Source: Eledone cirrhosa
Lineage: Eukaryota
Direction of reading: 5' to 3'
Length of the DNA: 64,000 nt
NCBI GenBank assembly: GCA_964016885.1
Contig: OZ024750.1
Location: forward strand, 31,992,001 to 32,056,000
Shown in pieces: positions 7,781 to 50,588 of this stretch. Position 1 is the stretch's first letter. Each line of letters opens with the position of its first letter. The translations under genes and the position numbers were made by a program. Under the pieces are notes generated by a model. That model was not told the origin of the DNA. It made no database searches and worked only from the letters and a program-made list of their open reading frames with translations.

Positions 7781-9875
7781 ACTGGAACCAACTGGACGAA
7801 AGAATTGAATAGAACTGTTATACAATGTTACCTGAAGAGTAACCCCAAAGAAAAAGGCTATAGGAAACGGATGCATAACATCTGGAACGAGATTGGTCTA
7901 TTTAAATTAGATGAACAGAAATTGGCCGGGCAGGCTCCGGTAATAAGAACTAATGGGTGGATACGCGAGCTGGAACTGGAGGAACTGAGCAGAGAGATTA
8001 GGTTGGAAATGGAGAGTGGAGTATGCCAGGCAAACGAGCCAGTGGGAAATGAAGGTGAAGAGGTTGAGAGAACGGAGGAACCATCCGAAGCAGACAATGA
8101 TCTGAATGCTGAAATAAATAATACCTGGAATAAAGATACGGCCATTGAGGAAATGAATGCTGACGGGCTAGGACAAGATTTGGTTGATATCCTAAACTTA
8201 GTCGTAGATGAAATGAACAATGATAGTGGGAAACCTATGAACCTAAGTTTTGTAGACAGGAAAAAGTTAAATGAAACAACAGCTAAGGTAAACAAAGTCA
8301 TCCCATACCTTGAGGCGAGAAGCCTTCACCAGTTCAACACTATCCTCAAAGCAACAGCAAATGCGGTGAGGAAATTACTTGGCATAAAAGCGAGAGGAAA
8401 CAACAAACAAGAAAGATCAGAACCTTGGTGGAAGAAACGACTGAATGGTCAAATCAGGGAAATGAGAAATGACATTGGAAAGCTTGAGTCCCTACTAAAT
8501 GGGACACTAAAAAACATAGACACTAAAAATAGACTGGAAATAAAGTACACATCTAGGAGGAAAAAGCTAAATATTATCATAGAGGAACTGAAGCAACGCA
8601 TTGTAGCAAAGAGTGCAACAATTAGGCGATACGAGAGCAGAGAACCGCATGTTTGACAACAACCAGAAGATGTTGTTTGGACAGCTTGAACGGAGGAAAG
8701 AAAGAGGCACGACTTGACAGATTCTTGAAAGGAATATGGCAGCAGGATGTTAAACATAATGACCAGGCAGTGTGGATTGAGGCAGTACAAAAGGAGATTA
8801 GTGAACAGACACACCAACAAACTGATTTGAGTATCACTGTTGAAACGCTTAAGGGGCAGGCCAAAAAACTAACCAACTGGAAATCACCAGGCCCAGATGG
8901 TGTGCAGGGGTATTGGATTAAATATATAACATCCCTCCACCCGAAACTGATAACCATGTTCAATGACTTCTTGATGTCAGGTGAGGTACCAGAGTGGTTG
9001 ACAAAAGGTACTACAGTTCTGGTAATGAAAGACCGAATCAAGGGTAATAATGTTACCAACTATAGACCTATCACATGTCTGTCCGTAATGTGGAAACTGT
9101 TAACAAGCATTGTGTCTGAGGAAATCTACAATCACCTCCACATAAACAACTCGTTACCGGACGAACAGAGAGGATGCCGAAAGAAGTCCCGTGATACAAA
9201 GGACCAGTTACTTATTCATAAGATGGTAATGAGGAATTGCAAGAGGAGGCACACTGGTCTTGCCATGGGATGGATAGACTACAACAAGGCATTTGACATG
9301 GTGCCTCATTCTTGGATCACCAAAAGCCTAGAGATCTTCAAGGTGGCAGATAACATCAGACAGTTGTTGAGCAAAAGTATGAAGTCCTGGAAAACAGAGT
9401 TAACATCGGCTGGAGAATCCTTGGGAGGCGTGAAGATCAAGAGAGGTATCTTCCAGGGAGATAGTCTGTCCTCTCTATTGTTTGCCCTTGCCCTGATGCC
9501 CCTGACCATTATACTGCAAAAAGTGAGAGCAGGATACAAGTTGGGAAAGGGAGAGCTTACCATCATTCACCTCCTCTTCATGGACGATCTTAAGCTCTTC
9601 GGGAAGAGTGAGAAGGAGTTGGATGTGCTTGTTGACACTGTCCGTATTTTCAGCAGTGATATATGTATGCAATTTGGTATTAGTAAGTGTGGAGTCCTTG
9701 TGTTGAAGAGGGGTAAATTGAGCAGAAGCAACGGAATCCAGGTACCAACAGGTGAGATGATAAAGGAAATTGACACTGAAGAAGGATACAAATATTTAGG
9801 TGTTCTGGAGGCTGATGACACCAATAACAAAAAAATGAAGGAATTGATAAGATCTGAATAGATTCGGAGAGTAAG
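7781..9875 (+). pseudogene. R4/Dong-type non-LTR retrotransposon ORF, N-terminus plus RT; frameshifted near 8653, 3' truncated
   Basis: WTKELNRTVIQCY..GYRKRM N-terminal motif; WKSPGPDG, NYRPITCL, EQRGC, WIDYNKAFD, GIFQGDSLS, LLFMDD, YKYLG. Confidence 0.9.
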
Positions 9876-15429: not shown

Positions 15430-15735
15430 GGTTGTTTAGTTGGGTAGTCCATAGTAACTTTAACTCTGGTGGATGGAGTTAGCTATTTGTTGGATGCTTT
15501 CCGTGGTGTTCTTCTCTCATTCCTGACTATTCCGCTGTGGGGGTGTTTTTACTAAGATATTTATGCCATCTATGTAGCGTGTGTTCATGGTCATGATTAT
15601 AAAATTGACGTCTAGTTGTTCCTTAAATTTTCTGTCCCACCATACCATCAATAGGTTAGCTATGTTACCTGCAATGCTAACGCCAATGGCTGCCCCTTCC
15701 TCTTGGGCATATGTTTTGCCATTAAACAAATTAAA
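15430..15735 (-). pseudogene. Penelope-like reverse transcriptase fragment
   Basis: [36 protein letters not shown] resembles the PLE RT motifs Q..G.A.G..A...M and RY.DD, followed by IANSIH..TMDYP. Confidence 0.75.
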
Positions 15736-15739
15736 CAAA

Positions 15740-15773
<34 letters not shown>

Positions 15774-15781
15774 TTGTGAAT

Positions 15782-15812
<31 letters not shown>

Positions 15813-15894
15813 CATACACAAATATATATATATGTACATGTATATATATACATGCATATATGTATGTATATATGTATTTGTATGCATACACCCA

Positions 15895-15976
<82 letters not shown>

Positions 15977-16177
15977 AGAGTATTGAAGTTTGCTTGAAGC
16001 ATTGTGGAATAATAAGGTAAATTTCTTTAAGTCGTTTGGAAGCCTCGACAATGCAGATGGGTAAATCTCCGGGTAACAAGATCCGGTGGTGGAGAGAGAG
16101 ATGTAAGTGGGTGTACGTTGAGATGCGTGGCGTGTATAATACTGTAACGTGTAGAGGAATGAAGGAAAGAACGTAAA

Positions 16178-16355
<178 letters not shown>

Positions 16356-17038
16356 ATGTGTATTTAAGAAAGACAATACGCATGCTGAGTATCAATATTT
16401 CATGAATGAAGACTATTATGCATTCCAAAACCACAGTAGACACCAGATTCAGATATTCAAATAAATTATACTCGAAATATTCACTGACGTCAACCGAAAG
16501 GTCAGGATACAAACCATAGAAACATCATAAAATATTTGATAATCAGAATACGAAATAGTATGAAACATAAAAATACAGAAAGACATGTTTCCCAAAAATA
16601 TGGTAACGAATATAGATGTATTTTTGAAAATATTAAACACGAAAAAATATTGCGAGAAGCATAAATCAAAAAAAAAGCAAACAGCTATAATAAGACACAT
16701 AACACGATACAATAGTAGATACCTCATAAGTTACATCAAGAATTTGATGATAAATCTTTAAGTAAACATTAATATCTCTAAATATATCACGGTTTAATGA
16801 GAGTTTCAGCAGAGGAGAATAAACACTTTCTTTGATTTAAACGTTTAGAATTGAAATGTTAAGAGTCACTCGTAAATAAAGAAAAACAAGGTAACGTTAA
16901 AGTTGTTTCGAATTGAATCAAACTAATACATACATACATACATGCATACATACATGCATACATACATACATACATACATACATACATACATACATACATA
17001 CATACATACATACATACATACATACATACATACATACA

Positions 17039-18920
17039 TGGATTATTAAGGCTTTGCAGTTAGCTAAAGTCCCACAACCATTGGTAGCTGCTGTTGAACG
17101 CCTGACCAAGAACTGGTACAACAATTTGATCCTTAGAGGTGAGAAGAAGCAGGTTAAGACTGATAAGATACATTACCAGAAGGGCATCTTTCAGGGTGAT
17201 AGCTTGTCAGTGCTACTCTTCGTTCTCTCACTGAATCCACTATCTTACCTACTCAGGAAACAAGGTGTACAAAGAAGTGGGCCCAGAAGTATCTCCCATC
17301 TTTTCTTTGTTGATGACCTGAAGTTGTATGGGCCAAATATCAATGACATCAAGAAACAATTGGACCTCATTACACAATTTTCAACCGACATCAAAATGAA
17401 ATTTGGTGAGTCCAAGTGTGCATATTTGGCAGTAAAACGTGGAAGAGCTGTGCTCTCCTCTAGAAATCTAGAGATGAACGGCCTGACAATACAACCTCTG
17501 CAGTCAGGTGACAACTACAGATATCTTGGACAGGATGAGAATGTCAGATATGATGGACCCATAATTAAGGAGAGAACCAGAACTGAATACCTCAGAAGAG
17601 TAAAGAAAATATGGTCATCAGAACTGTCAGCCTACAACAAATACATTGCCCACAATACTTATGCCGTGCCAATTCTAACGCCAACATTTGGCCTACTGAA
17701 CTGGTCATTGCAAGAACTAAGTGAGATGGATGTTAGAACTCGAAAACTTCTCAGTGTTACTGGCAACTTTAACATCAATGGTGATGTGGATAGGCTATAC
17801 TTCTCACGCAAGGAAGGTGGCCGGGGTCTAAAATCAATATTAACAACATATGAGACCCGGATAGTAACACTGAAGCAACACCTTCAACAGAGGAAAAAGG
17901 TTGGCAACCATCTTGCCCAGGTTTATGAGCATGAAAAAAGAAATATCATTAGAATAGCGACTGATCTGGAGGAGAGATATGGACTAAAGCCTGATATAAA
18001 TCTCTCACCCAGAGAAATCGGAAGATCCTATTCAATGTTCAAACAAGATAAGAAAATTGACCAATTTACAGAAAAAGTTGTGCATGGATACTTGAGGCGT
18101 AAAACACAGACCATAGAGGGGATAAACCACTCAAAAACCCTGGCATGGAGTTCCGACAAGTTTATGACATCACACCTTGAGGGATATCTCTATGCATTAC
18201 AGCAACAATAACTCCCTACCAAATATCTGCTGCACAAAACAGGAGGGCCAACAGCTGACAATAAATGTAGGCTATGTAAAACAAAGATCGAGGATGTAAG
18301 CCACATTGTTGCCAGCTGCGAAAGAATGTCATCTCGCTACTACCTCCCCATGAGACACGATGGGATAGCTAGAACCATCTGGAACGCACTTCGGAAAACA
18401 AAATTAACAACAAACGAGGAAGAATATATTGAGACAGATGGCACTAAGGAATACTGGTGGAACCTGAAAATAAAAACTGCCACCAAATTAAAGCACAACC
18501 GGCCTTATATTGTAGTTTGGGACCACACATTGAAAACGTGTTCTGTTGTGGAGATCAGCTGCCCACTTGATGTAAACGTTGTCAGAAAAATACAGGAGAA
18601 GGAGGACATCTACGGACCATTGATGAGGAGTTTACAAATCCAGTATCCAAGATACACCTTTAGCTTCATACCCATCATTAATGGTGCTACGGGTTATATA
18701 CCAACCCGCTTGGACCAAAGTATGACTGAACTTGGATTTGCGGACAAAAAGCGCAGCTCCCTAATTCATAGTCTGCAAATGGCTGCGATAGCTGGCACCT
18801 TCAAAATTTGCAAAACATTCTTGAGATTCAAAGGATGACAATTTCATTTCTTTTACAACCTTGCCACCAGGAAGGTGGCCGGTCAAAAAAATATACTCGA
18901 AATTAAGAGAAAGAGAAAAC
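17039..18920 (+). pseudogene. 5'-truncated R4/Dong LINE (RT, CCHC zinc knuckle, RLE endonuclease) inserted in (CATA)n
   Basis: GIFQGDSLS, LFFVDD, YRYLG, GGRGL, CRLC..H..ASC, RHD, NRPYIVV/VEISCP. One in-frame stop at 18209-18211; (CATA)n on both flanks. Confidence 0.9.
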
Positions 18921-27044: not shown

Positions 27045-27135
<91 letters not shown>

Positions 27136-27424
27136 CAAATAACGAAACGAAATTAAATTTCGTTTCGTTTGTAACTCACTTTTGTATGACTGACGCTTAA
27201 ACAATTAAGTTAAAGATGTACATCCATATATGTATACTGAAATACTAGTATGTATATGAATACACACACGTATACATATGTAGGTGTACCAAGTTTTTTC
27301 ACTGGTCACTTTACTGTGAGTGGCCAGCTATTCTGTATGTAAACACACAGACAAACCGGTTTTTAGAGTCATACTGGTTTTTGAGGAAACACCTCTCCTC
27401 TATTCTCCAGAAAGCCAGACAAGG

Positions 27425-27469
27425 AATATTGAACTAGTTTCGTTGTTGTTACAACTCATCAGCAATATT
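27425..27469 (-). ncRNA. Type I hammerhead ribozyme (GUU site)
   Basis: AATATTG-CTGATGA-GTTGT(AACA)ACAAC-GAAA-CTAG-T-T-CAATATT on the minus strand. Confidence 0.9.
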
Positions 27470-27891
27470 TACCTATCTTCCGGCCTCTCTAGAGAATCGT
27501 AAAAGCACATATCGTTATATGCTTTTTCTATGAAAATTAGTAGTGGGCAGACTAATTTGCATAGAGTGTGAGTAAGTACCGGTTCAACGGAGACGATAAA
27601 AACAAATAACGAAACGAAATTAAATTTCGTTTCGTTTGTAACTCACTTTTGTATGACTGACGCTTAAACAATTAAGTTAAAGATGTACATCCATATATGT
27701 ATACTGAAATACTAGTATGTATATGAATACACACACGTATACATATGTAGGTGTACCAAGTTTTTTCACTGGTCACTTTACTGTGAGTGGCCAGCTATTC
27801 TGTATGTAAACACACAGACAAACCGGTTTTTAGAGTCATACTGGTTTTTGAGGAAACACCTCTCCTCTATTTTCCAGAAAGCCAGACAAGG

Positions 27892-27936
27892 AATATTGAA
27901 CTAGTTTCGTTGTTGTTACAACTCATCAGCAATATT
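27892..27936 (-). ncRNA. Type I hammerhead ribozyme
   Basis: Identical core, +467. Confidence 0.9.
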
Positions 27937-28358
27937 TACCTATCTTCCGGCCTCTCTAGAGAATCGTAAAAGCACATATCGTTATATGCTTTTTCTATGA
28001 AAATTAGTAGTGGGCAGACTAATTTGCATAGAGTGTGAGTAAGTACCGGTTCAACGGAGACGATAAAAACAAATAACGAAACGAAATTAAATTTCGTTTC
28101 GTTTGTAACTCACTTTTGTATGACTGACGCTTAAACAATTAAGTTAAAGATGTACATCCATATATGTATACTGAAATACTAGTATGTATATGAATACACA
28201 CACGTATACATATGTAGGTGTACCAAGTTTTTTCACTGGTCACTTTACTGTGAGTGGCCAGCTATTCTGTATGTAAACACACAGACAAACCGGTTTTTAG
28301 AGTCATACTGGTTTTTGAGGAAACACCTCTCCTCTATTCTCCAGAAAGCCAGACAAGG

Positions 28359-28403
28359 AATATTGAACTATTTTCGTTGTTGTTACAACTCATCAGCAAT
28401 ATT
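28359..28403 (-). ncRNA. Type I hammerhead ribozyme, helix III variant (C>A)
   Basis: GAAAATAGTT instead of GAAACTAGTT. Confidence 0.85.
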
Positions 28404-28825
28404 TACCTATCTTCCGGCCTCTCTAGAGAATCGTAAAAGCACATATCGTTATATGCTTTTTCTATGAAAATTAGTAGTGGGCAGACTAATTTGCATAGAG
28501 TGTGAGTAAGTACCGGTTCAACAGAGACGATAAAAACAAATAACGAAACGAAATTAAATTTCGTTTCGTTTGTAACTCACTTTTGTATGACTGACGCTTA
28601 AACAATTAAGTTAAAGATGTACATCCATATATGTATACTGAAATACTAGTATGTATATGAATACACACACGTATACATATGTAGGTGTACCAAGTTTTTT
28701 CACTGGTCACTTTACTGTGAGTGGCCAGCTATTCTGTATGTAAACACACAGACAAACCGGTTTTTAGAGTCATACTGGTTTTTGAGGAAACACCTCTCCT
28801 CTATTCTCCAGAAAGCCAGACAAGG

Positions 28826-28870
28826 AATATTGAACTAGTTTCGTTGTTGTTCCAACTCATCAGCAATATT
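28826..28870 (-). ncRNA. Type I hammerhead ribozyme, helix II top variant
   Basis: GTTGGAACAACAAC helix II. Confidence 0.85.
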
Positions 28871-29175
28871 TACCTATCTTCCGGCCTCTCTAGAGAATCG
28901 TAAAAGCACATATCGTTATATGCTTTTCCTATGAAAATTAGTAGTGGGCAGACTAATTTGCATAGAGTGTGAGTAAGTACCGGTTCAACGGAGACGATAA
29001 AAACAAATAACGAAACGAAATTAAATTTCATTTCGTTATTTGTTTTTATCGTCTCCGTTGAACCGGTACTTACTCACACTCTATGCAAATTAGTCTGCCC
29101 ACTACTAATTTTCATAGAAAAAGCATATAACGATATGTGCTTTTACGATTCTCTAGAGAGGCCGGAAGATAGGTA

Positions 29176-29220
29176 AATATTGCTGATGAGTTGTAACAAC
29201 AACGAAACTAGTTCAATATT
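29176..29220 (+). ncRNA. Type I hammerhead ribozyme
   Basis: AATATTG(29176-82) CTGATGA(29183-89) GTTGTAACAACAAC GAAA(29204-07) CTAG T T(29213) CAATATT. Confidence 0.9.
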
Positions 29221-29642
29221 CCTTGTCTGGCTTTCTGGAGAATAGAGGAGAGGTGTTTCCTCAAAAACCAGTATGACTCTAAAAACCGGTTTGTCTGTGT
29301 GTTTACATACAGAATAGCTGGCCACTCACAGTAAAGTGACCAGTGAAAAAACTTGGTACACCTACATATGTATACGTGTGTGTATTCATATACATACTAG
29401 TATTTCAGTATACATATATGGATGTACATCTTTAACTTAATTGTTTAAGCGTCAGTCATACAAAAGTGAGTTACAAATGAAACGAAATTTAATTTCGTTT
29501 CGTTATTTGTTTTTATCGTCTCTGTTGAACCGGTACTTACTCACACTCTATGCAAATTAGTCTGCCCACTACTAATTTTCATAGAAAAAGCATATAACGA
29601 TATGTGCTTTTACGATTCTCTAGAGAGGCCGGAAGATAGGTA

Positions 29643-29687
29643 AATATTGCTGATGAGTTGTAACAACAACGAAACTAGTTCAATATT
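29643..29687 (+). ncRNA. Type I hammerhead ribozyme
   Basis: Identical core. Confidence 0.9.
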
Positions 29688-30109
29688 CCTTGTCTGGCTT
29701 TCTGGAGAATAGAGGAGAGGTGTTTCCTCAAAAACCAGTATGACTCTAAAAACCGGTTTGTCTGTGTGTTTACATACAGAATAGCTGGCCACTCACAGTA
29801 AAGTGACCAGTGAAAAAACTTGGTACACCTACATATGTATACGTGTGTGTATTCATATACATACTAGTATTTCAGTATACATATATGGATGTACATCTTT
29901 AACTTAATTGTTTAAGCGTCAGTCATACAAAAGTGAGTTACAAACGAAACGAAATTTAATTTCGTTTCGTTATTTGTTTTTATCGTCTCCGTTGAACCGG
30001 TACTTACTCACACTCTATGCAAATTAGTCTGCCCACTACTAATTTTCATAGAAAAAGCATATAACGATATGTGCTTTTACGATTCTCTAGAGAGGCCGGA
30101 AGATAGGTA

Positions 30110-30154
30110 AATATTGCTGATGAGTTGTAACAACAACGAAAATAGTTCAATATT
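30110..30154 (+). ncRNA. Type I hammerhead ribozyme, helix III variant (C>A)
   Basis: GAAAATAGTT at 30138-30147. Confidence 0.85.
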
Positions 30155-30576
30155 CCTTGTCTGGCTTTCTGGAGAATAGAGGAGAGGTGTTTCCTCAAAA
30201 ACCAGTATGACTCTAAAAACCGGTTTGTCTGTGTGTTTACATACAGAATAGCTGGCCACTCACAGTAAAGTGACCAGTGAAAAAACTTGGTACACCTACA
30301 TATGTATACGTGTGTGTATTCATATACATACTAGTATTTCAGTATACATATATGGATGTACATCTTTAACTTAATTGTTTAAGCGTCAGTCATACAAAAG
30401 TGAGTTACAAACGAAACGAAATTTAATTTCGTTTCGTTATTTGTTTTTATCGTCTCCGTTGAACCGGTACTTACTCACACTCTATGCAAATTAGTCTGCC
30501 CACTACTAATTTTCATAGAAAAAGCATATAACGATATGTGCTTTTACGATTCTCTAGAGAGGCCGGAAGATAGGTA

Positions 30577-30621
30577 AATATTGCTGATGAGTTGTAACAA
30601 CAACGAAACTAGTTCAATATT
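30577..30621 (+). ncRNA. Type I hammerhead ribozyme
   Basis: Identical core. Confidence 0.9.
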
Positions 30622-31043
30622 CCTTGTCTGGCTTTCTGGAGAATAGAGGAGAGGTGTTTCCTCAAAAACCAGTATGACTCTAAAAACCGGTTTGTCTGTG
30701 TGTTTACATACAGAATAGCTGGCCACTCACAGTAAAGTGACCAGTGAACAAACTTGGTACACCTACATATGTATACGTGTGTGTATTCATATACATACTA
30801 GTATTTCAGTATACATATATGGATGTACATCTTTAACTTAATTGTTTAAGCGTCAGTCATACAAAAGTGAGTTACAAACGAAACGAAATTTAGTTTCGTT
30901 TCGTTATTTGTTTTTATCGTCTCCGTTGAACCGGTACTTACTCACACTCTATGCAAATTAGTCTGCCCACTACTAATTTTCATAGAAAAAGCATATAACG
31001 ATATGTGCTTTTACGATTCTCTAGAGAGGCCGGAAGATAGGTA

Positions 31044-31088
31044 AATATTGCTGATGAGTTGGAACAACAACGAAACTAGTTCAATATT
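31044..31088 (+). ncRNA. Type I hammerhead ribozyme; helix II variant and 8-nt deletion just downstream
   Basis: GTTGGAACAACAAC; TTGTCTGG[CTTTCTGG]AGAAT deletion. Confidence 0.85.
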
Positions 31089-31296
31089 CCTTGTCTGGAG
31101 AATAGAGGGGAGGTGTTTCCTCAAAAACCAGTATGACTCTAAAAACCGGTTTGTCTGTGTGTTTACATACAGAATAGCTGGCCACTCACAGTAAAGTGAC
31201 CAGTGAAAAAACTTGGTACACCTACATATGTATACGTGTGTGTATTCATATACATACTAGTATTTCAGTATACATATATGGATGTACATCTTTAAC

Positions 31297-31373
<77 letters not shown>

Positions 31374-42690: not shown

Positions 42691-43054
42691 CTTTCGTTAA
42701 CTACTTTTCCCATCTTGACGTTATAGTCGCATATATGTTATAGAATGCCGTTAGCTTCTTGCTAAAACAATCTCTATACCTCTCATTTATATGATTATAT
42801 ATATATATATATATATATATATGAATATAACAATTAAGTTAAAAATGTACATCTACATATGCATACTGAAATACTAGTGTGTATATGAATACACACACGT
42901 ATACATATGTAGGTGTACCAAGTCTTTCACTGGTCGCTTTACAGTGAGCGGCCCAGCTATTCTGTATGTAAACACACAGACAAACCGGTTTTTAGAGTCA
43001 TACTGGTTTTCGGGGGGAACACCTTCCCTCCATTCTCCAGAAAGCCAGACAAGG

Positions 43055-43099
43055 AATATTGGACTAGTTTCGTTGTTGTTACAACTCATCAGCAATATT
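43055..43099 (-). ncRNA. Type I hammerhead ribozyme (GUC site)
   Basis: AATATTG-CTGATGA-GTTGTAACAACAAC-GAAA-CTAG-T-C-CAATATT. Confidence 0.92.
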
Positions 43100-43509
43100 T
43101 ACCTATCTACCGGCCTTTCTGGAGAATTGTAAAAGCACATATCGTTATATGCTTTTTCTATGAAAATTAGTAGTGGGCAGACTAATTTGCATAGAGTGTG
43201 AGTACGCACCGGTTCAGCGGAGACGATAAAAACAAATAACGAAACGAAATTAAATTTCGTTTCGTTTGTAACTCACTTTTGTATGACTGACGCTTAAACA
43301 ATTAAGTTAAAAATGTACATCTACATATGAATACTGAAATACTAGTGAGTATATGAATACACACACGTATACATATGTAGGTGTACCAAGTCTTTCACTG
43401 GTCGCTTTACAGTGAGCGGCCCAGCTATTCTGTATGTAAACACACAGACAAACCGGTTTTTAGAGTCATACTGGTTTTCGGGGGGAACACCTTCCCTCCA
43501 TTCTCCAGA

Positions 43510-43554
43510 AATATTGCTGATGAGTTGTAACAACAACGAAACTAGTCCAATATT
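43510..43554 (+). ncRNA. Type I hammerhead ribozyme (GUC), at the inversion junction
   Basis: Same core; N17=C at 43547. Confidence 0.9.
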
Positions 43555-43977
43555 CCTTGTCTGGCTTTCTGGATAATGGAGGGAAGGTGTTCACCCCGAA
43601 AACCAGTATGACTCTAAAAACCGGTTTGTCTGTGTGTTTACATACAGAATAGCTGGGCCGCTCACTGTAAAGCGACCAGTGAAAGACTTGGTACACCTAC
43701 ATATGTATACGTGTGTGTATTCATATACACACTAGTATTTCAGTATGCATATGTAGATGTACATTTTTAACTTAATTGTTTAAGCGTCAGTCATACAAAA
43801 GTGAGTTACAAACGAAACGAAATTTAATTTCGTTTCGTTAGTTGTTTTTATCGTCTCCGCTGAACCGGTGCGTAGTCACACTCTATGCAAATTAGTCTGC
43901 CCACTACTAATTTTCATAGAAAAAGCATATAACGATATGTGCTTTTATAATTCTCCAGAAAGGCCGGTAGATAGGTA

Positions 43978-44022
43978 AATATTGCTGATGAGTTGTAACA
44001 ACAACGAAACTAGTCCAATATT
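43978..44022 (+). ncRNA. Type I hammerhead ribozyme (GUC)
   Basis: Same core, +468. Confidence 0.92.
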
Positions 44023-44371
44023 CCTTGTCTGGCTTTCTGGAGAATGGAGGGAAGGTGTTCCCCCCGAAAACCAGTATGACTCTAAAAACCGGTTTGTCAG
44101 TGTGTTTACATACAGAATAGCTGGGCCGCTCACTGTAAAGCGACCAGTGAAAGACTTGGTACACCTACATATGTATACGTGTGTGTATTCATATACACAC
44201 TACTATTTCAGTATGCATATGTAGATGTACATTTTTAACTTAATTGTTTAAGCGTCAGTCATACAAAAGTGAGTTACAAACGAAACGAAATTTAATTTCG
44301 TTTCGTTATTTGTTTTTATATGAATATATATATATATATATGAATATTTATATATATATATATACATATAT

Positions 44372-44765
44372 ATATCTATCTATCTAAGGCGGGTAAAATT
44401 CCCGAGATCCATGGACGAGCTCTCTCCAGCGGTCTCTGTCCCTCATTATCGCTGCCATGTCCTGCATCTCCAACAGACCAGTGCCTGTGCTTAGGGCATC
44501 AACATACGTTAACCTTGGTCTTCCTCTTCTAGTGTGTCCATGTAGGGGCTCCCAAAGGAGTACTGAGTGCAATGTCAACTCTGGATGTCGGTGAGCATGT
44601 CCAGCTAATCTCAGTCTCCTCTGTGTCACATTTGAGCTGACTTTTGGGATGCTCACATACAGCTGAGTTTTTCATCCTCAGTGTATACTGATTATTGTTC
44701 AGAGCCATCCTCAGCATTCTCATGTAGCACCCATCCAACATCTGAGTGAGTTTCTTGGTCACATA
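44372..44765 (-). mobile_element. RTE-clade LINE 3' end with (TAGA)n tail
   Basis: [50 protein letters not shown]. Confidence 0.85.
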
Positions 44766-47129: not shown

Positions 47130-50100
47130 ACCATAATACATACTCTAATTTAACACCAACACAACCACCAATAACTCAAACAAGGAATCCACAAATCTGC
47201 CGTTTTTCCCTGCGAGACAGATTGTGTTTAGACCGGGATTGTCCCTTTACCCATCTCCCGGGGACCCGTCGGATAAATGAAAATAAAATTAAAAATAAAA
47301 GCAAAAACAAAAACCATAACCTACATAAAAATAACCACTACCACAGTCACCAACAGTCTTCTAAACAGGAAACTTCTTCCTCTTTTTTAGCCATAATGAA
47401 TCTGGCAAAAGAACTGGAAAAAAACATTCGAGCTATCACCCAGCACCACCCTCCACTATCACCCCACTGCACAAACTCCCATTGCTGCCATTAACAAACA
47501 AACAAATTAACAACACACCAAAACAATTAAAACCATCCACTCTCGCCTCTACATTTTTGCTTAACGCCCAAGGCATCAGCCCTTCCACCAATACTCAAAA
47601 ATGGAAGATCAAATTCCTGGAGGACTGGATTGATGTCCATCCAAACCACATCCCTTTCTTCGTCCTCACTGAAACCCATCTCAGTAACCTCCACTTGGAA
47701 GCCGAGGTGAAAGTGAAAAATTTCAAAGCCATCCGTGCTGATCGCGCTGGCAGAAGAAAGGGCGGAACTGCCATTTATGTCCATAATTCTTTCTCAACAG
47801 AGGCTATGAACATATTCACTAATGGATACTGTGAGGCAGTCACTGTATTCAGTCAAACCAACAACCTATTAGTAGTTGGGCTCTATAGGCCACCCCAAAC
47901 GCCTGTACCATGCTTCAAGGAATGCCTCAACAGCATAAAGTGTTTCATCCAAGAGTGTCACCCTGACAACATCTTAATGATGGGGGACTTCAACCTCCCC
48001 GGAGTTGACTGGTCCACAAACACCCTGCCACCAGGTTCTTCTGCCTCAACCTCTGACAGGGAAGCTGTGGAATCGCTTCTTGACTTCATGGATGATTTCT
48101 TCCTATCCCAACTAGTGCTCGAACCAACGAGGTGCCACAAAAACGTCCTAGACTTAATTTTCAGCAATCACACTGACAATATCCACAATATTGCAGTGGA
48201 GAAAACTCTACTCTCTGATCATGACATGGTTCTCTGTGATCTGAGATTCCACCGTCCAATATACAAACCCAATGTCATTTCTCCTGTCCATCCGTTTGAC
48301 GCTATGGATTTCCACAATGCAAACTGGGAAGCGATCAGTCATGATCTTGCACATGTCGACTGGTCCTTCACGCACACTCATACACCCACTAACATCAAAA
48401 AGTCCTGGCAGACTTTTGTGGACACTGTTACAAACATATGTGCTAAACACACCCCATTAAGAACTATAAACAAATCTAAGAGCAGAATCCCTAGAAATAG
48501 AAAAACACTCATCAGAAAAATTAAGAGAACGAACAAAAAAATCAACAAGCTGAAATACTGTCAGCAGCAACACATCAACTTGACTGCCATTTCATCACTA
48601 GAGATTAAAAAACATAACCTCCAAAACAACATAATGTCCCTCATCAACAATCAGAGAAGAGCTGAAGAGGCCTGGGCCATTGAGAAGATCAAACTCAATC
48701 CCAAAGTGTTCTTTTCATTTGCAAAAAAACACAAAATCACTGGCTCTACTGTTGGCCCTCTAATTGATGAAAATGGCACTCTTCAAGACAATGCTAAAAC
48801 CATGGGTGAGATACTGCAGAAACAATACTGCTCTGTTTTCAGCAATCCTGATATGGCCGATCTGGGCTGTATCGGCGATGTTACTCCCCATTACACCTTA
48901 TCGGACATAACGTTTGGCGCCCCTGATGTCTTGGCGGCAATAAAGGAAATCAAACATAATTCAGCAGTAGGTCCCGATAGGTTCCCTGCTTGTGTCTTGA
49001 AGGCGTGTCAACACCAACTTGCTTCTCCTCTTGCCAATCTGTGGCGGAACTCACTGGATGCTGGATATGTGCCAGAAAACCTTCTATCCCAGTCTGTTGT
49101 CCCAGTTTTCAAAAAGGGAAACAAATCCCTTGCCGTGAATTACCGTCCAATCTCACTCACCTCTCATATCATTAAGGTATTTGAGCGAGTGGTGAGATCG
49201 CGAATGACCCACTTCCTTGAGAGTAACAATATGCTGAACTCCAACCAGCATGGATTCCGTAATGGAAGGGATTGCCTGACGCAACTACTGCATCACTTTG
49301 ATGACATTTTGAGAGCCTTGGGAGAGGGTTCCAACACTGATGTTATCTACCTTGATTTCAGCAAGGCCTTTGACAGGGTTGATCATAACATTCTACTGAG
49401 AAAGCTGTCCAATATTGGTGTCACTGGAAAGCTGCTGCAGTGGATCAAGAGCTTCCTGTCAAACAGAACCCAATCATGTTGTAGTTGAGGGAGTCAAATC
49501 AAGCCCAGCCAAAGTCAGTAGTGGAGTCCCACAAGGCACTGTGTTGGGCCCACTTCTCTTCATCATCTATATTAATGACATCACTGACATCATCAAACAC
49601 AGCAACATTAAAATTTTCGCTGATGATTCCAAGCTCCAAAAGGTCATCAATGGCGTGGATGACCGGATAAGCCTTCAGTCAGACCTACTGGCTGTTACCC
49701 AATGGGCAGAAAAGAACAACATGTTACTGAACGAAGACAAATTCGAACTGATCCACTTTGGAAAAGAGGATGCTCTGAAACTCCCGTACTCCCTTCCCTC
49801 CGGGGAAACTCTCGTGGCATCTAACAACATCAGAGACTTGGGAGTAACCGTGGACAGCAACATAAGCTGGACCACGCATATAAGCAGCAAAGTTGACATG
49901 GCCCGCAGAATGTGTTCCTGGATCCTCAGAACCTTCCAGTCGAGAGATTCCCGCACCATTATCCTTCTCTTCTCTACTTTCGCCCGACCACACCTTGAAT
50001 ACTGTTGTCCACTGTGGTCTCCCCACACGAAACAAAGTATCATGAAACTTGAAGCTCCTCAAAGGGCAATCACGAAAAAGATAGATGGCATGTCAGACCT

Positions 50101-50588
50101 TGACTACTGGGGTCGATTGGAAAACCTGAAACTTTACTCACTCCAACGTCGCCGTGAGCGTTATATTATCTGCATGATGTGGAAAATGTTCCATCATCAC
50201 TGCCCAAATGATGTTGGCATCGCCTTCAAGATACACCCAAGGCTTGGGCCCCGTGCTATCCGTCCCATTCAAAAATCTAAATCGCAACTCATAACAACAA
50301 TACGGCACAATTATTTCACCTCAATCGGCCCTGCTCTCTTCAACATCACACCAGGACACGTCAAAACAGAAACTGACCACACAAGATTCAAGAAGTCTTT
50401 GGACAAATTCCTCCAAGTAATCCCGGACAAACCACCCACACCCGGATATGTCTCCGCAAACAGTAATTCTCTTCTCGAATGGGCCATGGTGCCCAAATCC
50501 TGAATTGAAAGACTTCGCCAGGTGGTGCTATTAAGTTAGACATGGCCTGGGCCAATACTGGCCAAAACATTTCAAAGTTATTCAAAGT

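Follow-up and report, generated by a model that had tools for sequence, protein, structure and literature searches.

A dispersed hammerhead-bearing repeat of Eledone cirrhosa inserted as two head-to-head arms with one long and one short 3' end

Metazoan non-LTR retrozymes, as they appear in the available text of two sources (PMC7229834; bioRxiv 10.64898/2026.07.22.740005), are dispersed tandem units, each with a type I hammerhead, of low GC content, with no ORF and with strong self-pairing, and are found in genomes that also contain Penelope-like elements (PLEs). The idea that retrozymes are non-autonomous PLEs has already been proposed in the literature, and in animals the link has so far rested, in the accessible portions of these papers, on co-occurrence and on similarity of the pLTRs. 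Among the PLEs themselves, the EN+ elements of the Neptune and Naiad type are reported to carry an inverted 5'-truncated copy and a one-sided tail and to favour (TA)n targets, and the origin of the inverted copies and tails is called undefined in the part of the source at hand (PMC8557442). For the Poseidon element PAc, according to the available text, two internal reverse transcriptase (RT) start sites delimit the tail, both strands of the target are cut and extended, and the start sites used in vitro are alike on both strands (PMC11167929).

The window analysed here is a 64,000-nucleotide stretch of the genome of E. cirrhosa, which contains two arrays of a hammerhead-bearing repeat with a unit of 468 nt. 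The features referred to below, in window coordinates, are as follows.

27129..31302, array 1, an independent insertion with GUU at the cleavage triplet, two-armed like array 2
27129-29037, minus strand, minus arm of array 1, carrying the long end
29009-31302, plus strand, plus arm of array 1, carrying the short end (230)
42796..42828, (TA)n target, left flank of array 2 (window sequence)
42829..43511, minus strand, left arm of array 2, RNA sense on minus, about 1.5 units
43055..43099, minus strand, minimal type I hammerhead, GUC, N17 at 43062
43509..43511, 5'-to-5' junction of the arms of array 2 (read directly from the sequence)
43509..44319, plus strand, right arm of array 2, about 1.7 units
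43510..43554, plus strand, minimal type I hammerhead, GUC, predicted cleavage after 43547
43884..43918, plus strand, pair of motifs (12 and 11 nt) invariant between families A and B
43978..44022, plus strand, third hammerhead copy, GUC, predicted cleavage after 44015
44239..44319, plus strand, 3' end zone, monomer positions 224-304, corresponding to the tail of PLEs
44320..44383, (TA)n target, right flank of array 2 (window sequence)

A head-to-tail arrangement was rejected for array 2, because the minus-strand arm (42829-43511) is followed by a plus-strand arm (43509-44319) to which it is joined 5'-to-5'; this two-armed anatomy is what the preliminary description of the array had missed. With the monomer numbered from the first base 3' of the predicted cleavage site, the left arm starts at position 19, crosses one cleavage site and finishes at a short 3' end (233), and the right arm starts just 5' of a hammerhead, holds one full 468-nt unit (43548-44015) and finishes at a long 3' end (304). 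The two outer ends both abut (TA)n, and the three A bases of the junction fit either arm, as a microhomology. The arms of array 1 meet at a hairpin, and its long and short sides are swapped relative to those of array 2.

The repeat is non-coding, and array 2 belongs to a set of no fewer than 2,000 insertions of it scattered through the genome. The exact hammerhead pattern has 9,282 matches in the 3.0-Gb genome and the junction of a long end with (TA)n has 2,138, with none in the control in either case; the insertions are spread over many contigs and fall into subfamilies down to approximately 86% identity, as had been anticipated when the repeat was preliminarily described as a dispersed mobile family with subfamilies. 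We studied 115 non-redundant loci, chosen by similarity to array 2, by hammerhead pattern or by long end, with two (L188 and L189) added by hand as suspected exceptions. Two near-identical insertions 17.7 kb apart, L156 and L157, are a segmental or assembly duplicate, and L157 was left out of the counts.

The outer ends of the repeat fall into two classes, long (300-306) and short (224-237). A simple minus-then-plus layout was seen at 77 loci, three of which were cut by the fetch window; the remaining 74 untruncated loci comprise 64 with one long and one short end, eight with one non-standard end, one with two long ends and one with two short ends. Long is paired with short at 64 of the 66 loci having two standard ends, with a tail of 69-74 nt between the two positions; the long-long exception (L116) is two insertions merged, and the short-short exception is L189, which had been added by hand because an exception was suspected. 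By our own count, 39 of the 64 long-short loci came from samples that were not selected by their ends. The same haplotype was present in both arms at 66 of 67 testable loci (less than 3% apart, compared with 6% for typical other loci), the exception (L188) consisting of two insertions from different subfamilies (87% and 97%), whose tails are fused to each other at the hairpin of the end zone. Arm lengths were uncorrelated (rho 0.01), with the short-end arm the longer at 29 of the 64 loci, and the cleavage site is crossed in 107 of the 128 arms, two or more times in 45 of these. The central breakpoints are scattered across the unit; microhomology of at least 2 nt was found in 20 of 36 clean joins, against 17% expected, and the other 28 of the 64 joins were scored as insertions, some of these being exact-match artefacts, array 2 among them. 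Perfect TA runs of at least 8 nt lie beside 56 of the 64 long ends and, equally, 56 of the 64 short ends. Direct target-site duplications of at least 14 nt with complex sequence were absent from the 64 two-armed loci, and at one one-armed locus (L171) approximately 30 nt of flank is duplicated.

Many loci are one-armed, often with a short-end stub as the second arm, or more complex in structure. Unique flanking DNA is duplicated in inverted orientation on both sides of the insertion at L036 and L045. There are arms of approximately 30 units, for which later expansion at the DNA level could account. Within arrays, sequence variants recur with a period of 2 to 5 units in L106 and L173 and stand in shuffled order in array 1 and in L101/L102; they are sometimes common to both arms, and the outermost units of L164 have two private changes in common. 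A single multimeric circle as the source of the array 1 variants was rejected, as no 3-, 4- or 5-unit period could be fitted by hand.

When these properties are set against those of the described systems, the repeat is likely, to judge from its sequence, to be a non-LTR retrozyme and a non-autonomous PLE. It shares with the metazoan retrozymes the dispersal and the tandem units with one hammerhead each, its weak palindromic stem III resembles that of the amphibian hammerheads that act as dimers, and its unit lies above the 150-450 nt given in the available text of PMC7229834 and within the 51-972 nt of bioRxiv 10.64898/2026.07.22.740005. The two-armed head-to-head insertion with one long and one short fixed end is, by contrast, not described for these retrozymes in the same portions of text, and the word 'inverted' has no match in that of PMC7229834. 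We found no account of two-armed retrozyme arrays with strict long and short pairing, although supplements and subscription papers could hold one. As far as the accessible text goes, the EN+ PLEs (PMC8557442) and PAc (PMC11167929) share the inverted 5'-truncated copy, the tail at one end, the (TA)n or AT-rich target and a hammerhead 5' of two internal 3' ends, but here there is no RT or endonuclease ORF, the arms are multi-unit arrays and the tail is approximately 70 nt rather than 30-40 nt. In addition, the strict pairing of one long with one short end in this genome differs from the lack of a strand difference for PAc in vitro (PMC11167929, available text).

Autonomous PLEs co-occur with the repeat. 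A Pfam search of the genome for GIY-YIG domains gave 10,596 candidates, of which 150 were scored, and four of five proteins scanned contain an RT together with a C-terminal GIY-YIG in one frame. The aligned resident proteins possess a cysteine linker of the CX2-5CxxC type, which is given for Neptune and Nematis in the part of PMC8557442 available, and we therefore label them Neptune-like on the basis of this motif. One element with RT and GIY-YIG (L215; G000:C1:438609000-438618900) is itself two-armed, with ends 64 nt apart in (TA)n. Beside GIY-YIG loci we also found a sister family, B (L220:8079-9901; L230-L259), with 12,115 hammerhead matches, units of 466-540 nt and an internal TA tract, which is two-armed like the family of arrays 1 and 2 (family A) and has its ends near 251 and 310. 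The long ends of L215 and of families A and B are alike in having a hairpin, weakly predicted, followed by approximately 12 pyrimidine-rich bases; a pLTR homologous to A or B was not found in 80 GIY-YIG stretches (part of the 150 scored of 10,596 candidates).

Several observations were made alongside these searches. L225 is likewise a two-armed element with RT and GIY-YIG joined head to head. The 3' region of L213 belongs to a PLE family with a canonical minimal hammerhead and a different palindromic stem III, and that of L210 to a PLE with a hammerhead-like motif of altered core, approximately 100 nt 5' of the short end. Further unrelated hammerhead-like motifs with other palindromic stems III occur at L215:533, L226:4962, L213:393, L241, L018 and L313, and there are likely to be several more hammerhead families in this genome. 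In L032:4817-5070, the start of a hammerhead is the point of fusion between a close relative of array 2 and the final 243 nt of a PLE (98.8%); we did not count this as evidence of a template switch, because both outer ends are of the long type and two neighbouring insertions followed by a deletion would explain it equally well.

In the hammerhead, stems I, II and III have 7, 4 and 2 bp, respectively, stem III lying within a 6-nt palindrome that is able to pair between two copies (computed duplex -4.8 kcal/mol), and the motif is present in 12 of 12 copies in the window. Because a scan of the window with Rfam at gathering thresholds gave no match, the call rests on the motif and on covariation: six of 13 stem pairs have changed on both sides, with 94% of cells paired over 14 haplotypes; the shuffle test is inflated by the relatedness of the sequences, but slid controls were far lower. 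Substitution density inside and outside the hammerhead, which had been put forward in the preliminary description as a check on selection, was compared among 105 loci with a near-complete consensus, a site being scored as variable when an allele is common to at least three loci. The density did not differ significantly (six of 45 sites inside, 73 of 423 elsewhere, p=0.34). Inherited changes gave a similar picture, with six in the 45 nt (p=0.10) at 40 loci chosen without regard to the hammerhead and p=0.06 over all loci, and one third of all 45-nt windows of the monomer are conserved equally well or better. Conservation of the hammerhead as a whole was accordingly rejected. The 16 core positions, however, show no inherited change in the 40 blind loci (p=0.023), and all 16 are invariant across families A and B, compared with 185 of 423 positions outside (p=3e-6; five aligned monomers, in an alignment partly anchored by the motif itself). 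Of the six shared changes in the hammerhead, one is N17, stem II accounts for a compensatory pair and a loop base, and stem I for a wobble and the terminal pair; changes that break the core were seen at single loci only. Total parsimony steps were 0.44 per site in the hammerhead and 0.85 outside the end zone, although the end zone is equally low and part of this sample had been picked by hammerhead pattern.

The contrast between the two arrays from which selection had originally been argued can now be put in numbers. Array 2 monomers are 93.2-93.7% identical to those of array 1, one copy differing by 27-29 mismatches and three gaps over 473 columns, and the two consensus sequences differ by 23 substitutions, in agreement with the estimate of some two dozen. 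As was also stated, only N17 differs within the 45 nt, a single one of the 23, but this holds for the consensus, and four of the nine array 1 hammerheads bear other changes as well; a share of at most one in 23 for 45 of 468 sites is at the level of chance (P=0.33). Selection on the predicted ribozyme is thus supported by the invariant core and the compensatory stems, and not by the array contrast or the 45-nt window.

The monomer has a GC content of 37.8% and no long ORF (longest stop-to-stop frame 85 aa), no ORF for RT and GIY-YIG, and neither Pol III A/B boxes nor AATAAA. Its RNA is predicted to fold strongly (z=-8.15, reached by none of 100 shuffles), with the two monomer ends paired and, as a circle, 67% of bases paired; this predicted fold mispairs the catalytic core, and the hammerhead on its own has no better a fold than shuffled sequences (z approximately -1). 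The most conserved long stretch of family A is the end zone, 224-304 (four of 81 variable sites against 69 of 342, p=3e-4; 0.078 inherited changes per site against 0.263 outside the search pattern), which contains the short-end site, a 13-bp hairpin (44279-44307), a 12-nt U-rich stretch and the long end.

Fixed 3' ends combined with ragged 5' ends point to target-primed reverse transcription. That two different fixed ends face outward, with a single haplotype and with lengths independent of each other, suggests that one target was primed twice on the same RNA lineage. The best explanation overall, which we consider probable, is that the RNA of a ribozyme repeat serves a borrowed Penelope-type enzyme as template for two copies at a single target. 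The arrays would be transcribed, the hammerheads would cleave as dimers through the palindromic stem III and the monomers would circularize; a GIY-YIG/RT complex would then cut (TA)n on both strands, and priming from each of the target 3' ends would take place at one of the two internal sites (230-235 and 304), both on the same RNA or on sibling RNAs from one locus. Both cDNAs would pass the cleavage site, stop at variable points and be joined by repair of the microhomology type. We hold movement of the retrozyme by PLE machinery to be very likely and twin priming to be probable, and a circular template is mildly preferred to a linear multimer. Points that weigh against the explanation are the mispaired core of the predicted fold, the lack of a homologous pLTR in the 80 stretches, the indifference of PAc insertion in vitro to hammerhead mutants and its like start sites on both strands, the Xenopus elements that did not cleave, the array 1 variants that follow no one simple circle, the joins scored as insertions and the many loci with one arm or a stub. 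In the twin priming of L1, one RNA is primed from both strands of the target, and joining of the cDNAs by microhomology gives an inversion. The present repeat differs in lacking poly(A), in having its two starts at fixed internal sites separated by 70 nt, and in arms that each copy the same sequence again over several units.

The template is the least settled part of this explanation, as arms of several units could come from a circle, from a multimer left uncleaved or from jumps between templates, and the within-array variants do not decide between them. The PLE enzyme may instead copy an uncleaved linear multimer of the source array, the hammerhead acting at another step or rarely, a reading that we put below even chances. 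In its favour, insertion by PAc in vitro is unaffected by hammerhead mutants (PMC11167929, available text), the hammerhead is minimal and is not the preferred predicted fold, and the periodic variants of L106 and L173 and shuffled variants of array 1 and L101/L102 look as if a heterogeneous array had been copied. However, the core is invariant over two families while the stems covary, and cleavage must therefore have a part in the cycle; for other retrozymes of animals, circles are on record in the accessible text of PMC7229834, and the arms of approximately 30 units also speak for a circle, unless they grew later as DNA.

A single priming, after which the first cDNA is copied by fold-back or template switching as far as the short-end site to give the second arm, would account for the shared haplotype, for the joins that lie at palindromes (264/264 in array 1 and L063; 210/210 in L049) and for the inverted flanking duplications at L036 and L045. 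No such copy can be longer than what it was copied from, and yet at 29 of 64 loci it is the short-end arm that is the longer, and the lengths are uncorrelated; shared variants are not mirrored in register, and most joins pair two unrelated positions of the monomer. The outward-facing different ends, with one haplotype and independent lengths, argue against fold-back copying in the same way, and we regard it as improbable in general and as already largely refuted for most loci. Amplification of a satellite at the DNA level, by unequal crossover or extrachromosomal DNA circles and with the hammerhead as a passenger, is more improbable still, since it is opposed by 3' ends that are fixed where 5' ends vary, by the preference for TA targets, by the spread over many contigs and by the invariance of the catalytic core, and the very long homogeneous arms that would suit it (L119 and L160) perhaps grew after insertion.

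Returning to twin priming, we tentatively suggest, as a possibility short of an even chance, that one dimer of a Penelope-type RT engages the two cut (TA)n ends asymmetrically, with a long-site and a short-site subunit on a single circular RNA, both rolling around the circle. If true, this would explain the inverted pLTRs and the one-sided tails of PLEs at once, and would show how the circular ribozyme RNAs of animals get written into genomes. The insertion anatomy is the part worth following: the signature of PLE integration is seen here in thousands of young, short insertions, with rules that can be counted (one end of each type, one haplotype and independent multi-unit lengths), and tests of twin priming and of circular templates have a ready substrate in a 468-nt RNA whose two start sites are mapped.

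The difference between GUC and GUU is itself ordinary. GUC occurs in three of three array 2 hammerheads and U at N17 in nine of nine array 1 copies, both triplets conforming to the NUH rule as had been noted; N17 is U in 79 and C in 26 of the 105 loci, and the family B triplet is GUA. The exact array 2 hammerhead is found in 67 of the 9,282 pattern matches, on at least three backgrounds: of 13 such loci checked, seven are of the array 2 lineage, three are array 1-like, two have a third background and one is unplaced. Since, in addition, most array 2 relatives at 97-98% identity have GUU, N17 was rejected as a subfamily marker; it is labile within NUH, with repeated flips between C and U. Adaptive tuning of the cleavage rate, with the triplet defining subfamilies, is an unlikely reading. 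In its favour, the NUH triplets reported to be fastest are GUC and GUA (PMC3138052, available text), the change from U to C has recurred on three backgrounds or more, and within arrays no site has a higher variant rate than N17, albeit from just three events; on the other hand, young expansions are mostly GUU, the array 2 type is rare and family B uses GUA. It is likely that GUC and GUU are near-neutral and that N17 is free to be C, U or A.

The conserved motif pair at 43884..43918 has 17,272 matches genome-wide and none in the control, and is a candidate internal promoter or protein-binding hairpin; its first motif contains what we take to be an octamer-like site. The promoter of newt satellite 2 contains an octamer. 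Newt satellite 2 is a tandem repeat with a dimer-dependent hammerhead (PMC7229834), likened to the present repeat by description only, and its internal promoter is of the snRNA type (PMC2220036), in the available text of both; the octamer-like motif here would be a candidate part of such a promoter. With respect to cleavage, eight of nine Xenopus elements did not cleave, according to the accessible text of bioRxiv 10.64898/2026.07.22.740005.

Elsewhere in the window, broken frames of non-LTR retrotransposons with RT-like motifs were recognized by eye at 7781-9861, 16901-18838 and 47365-50503, the last with an endonuclease-like part in addition, and a short RT-like fragment, possibly Penelope-like by eye, lies between microsatellites at 15517-16026 on the minus strand.
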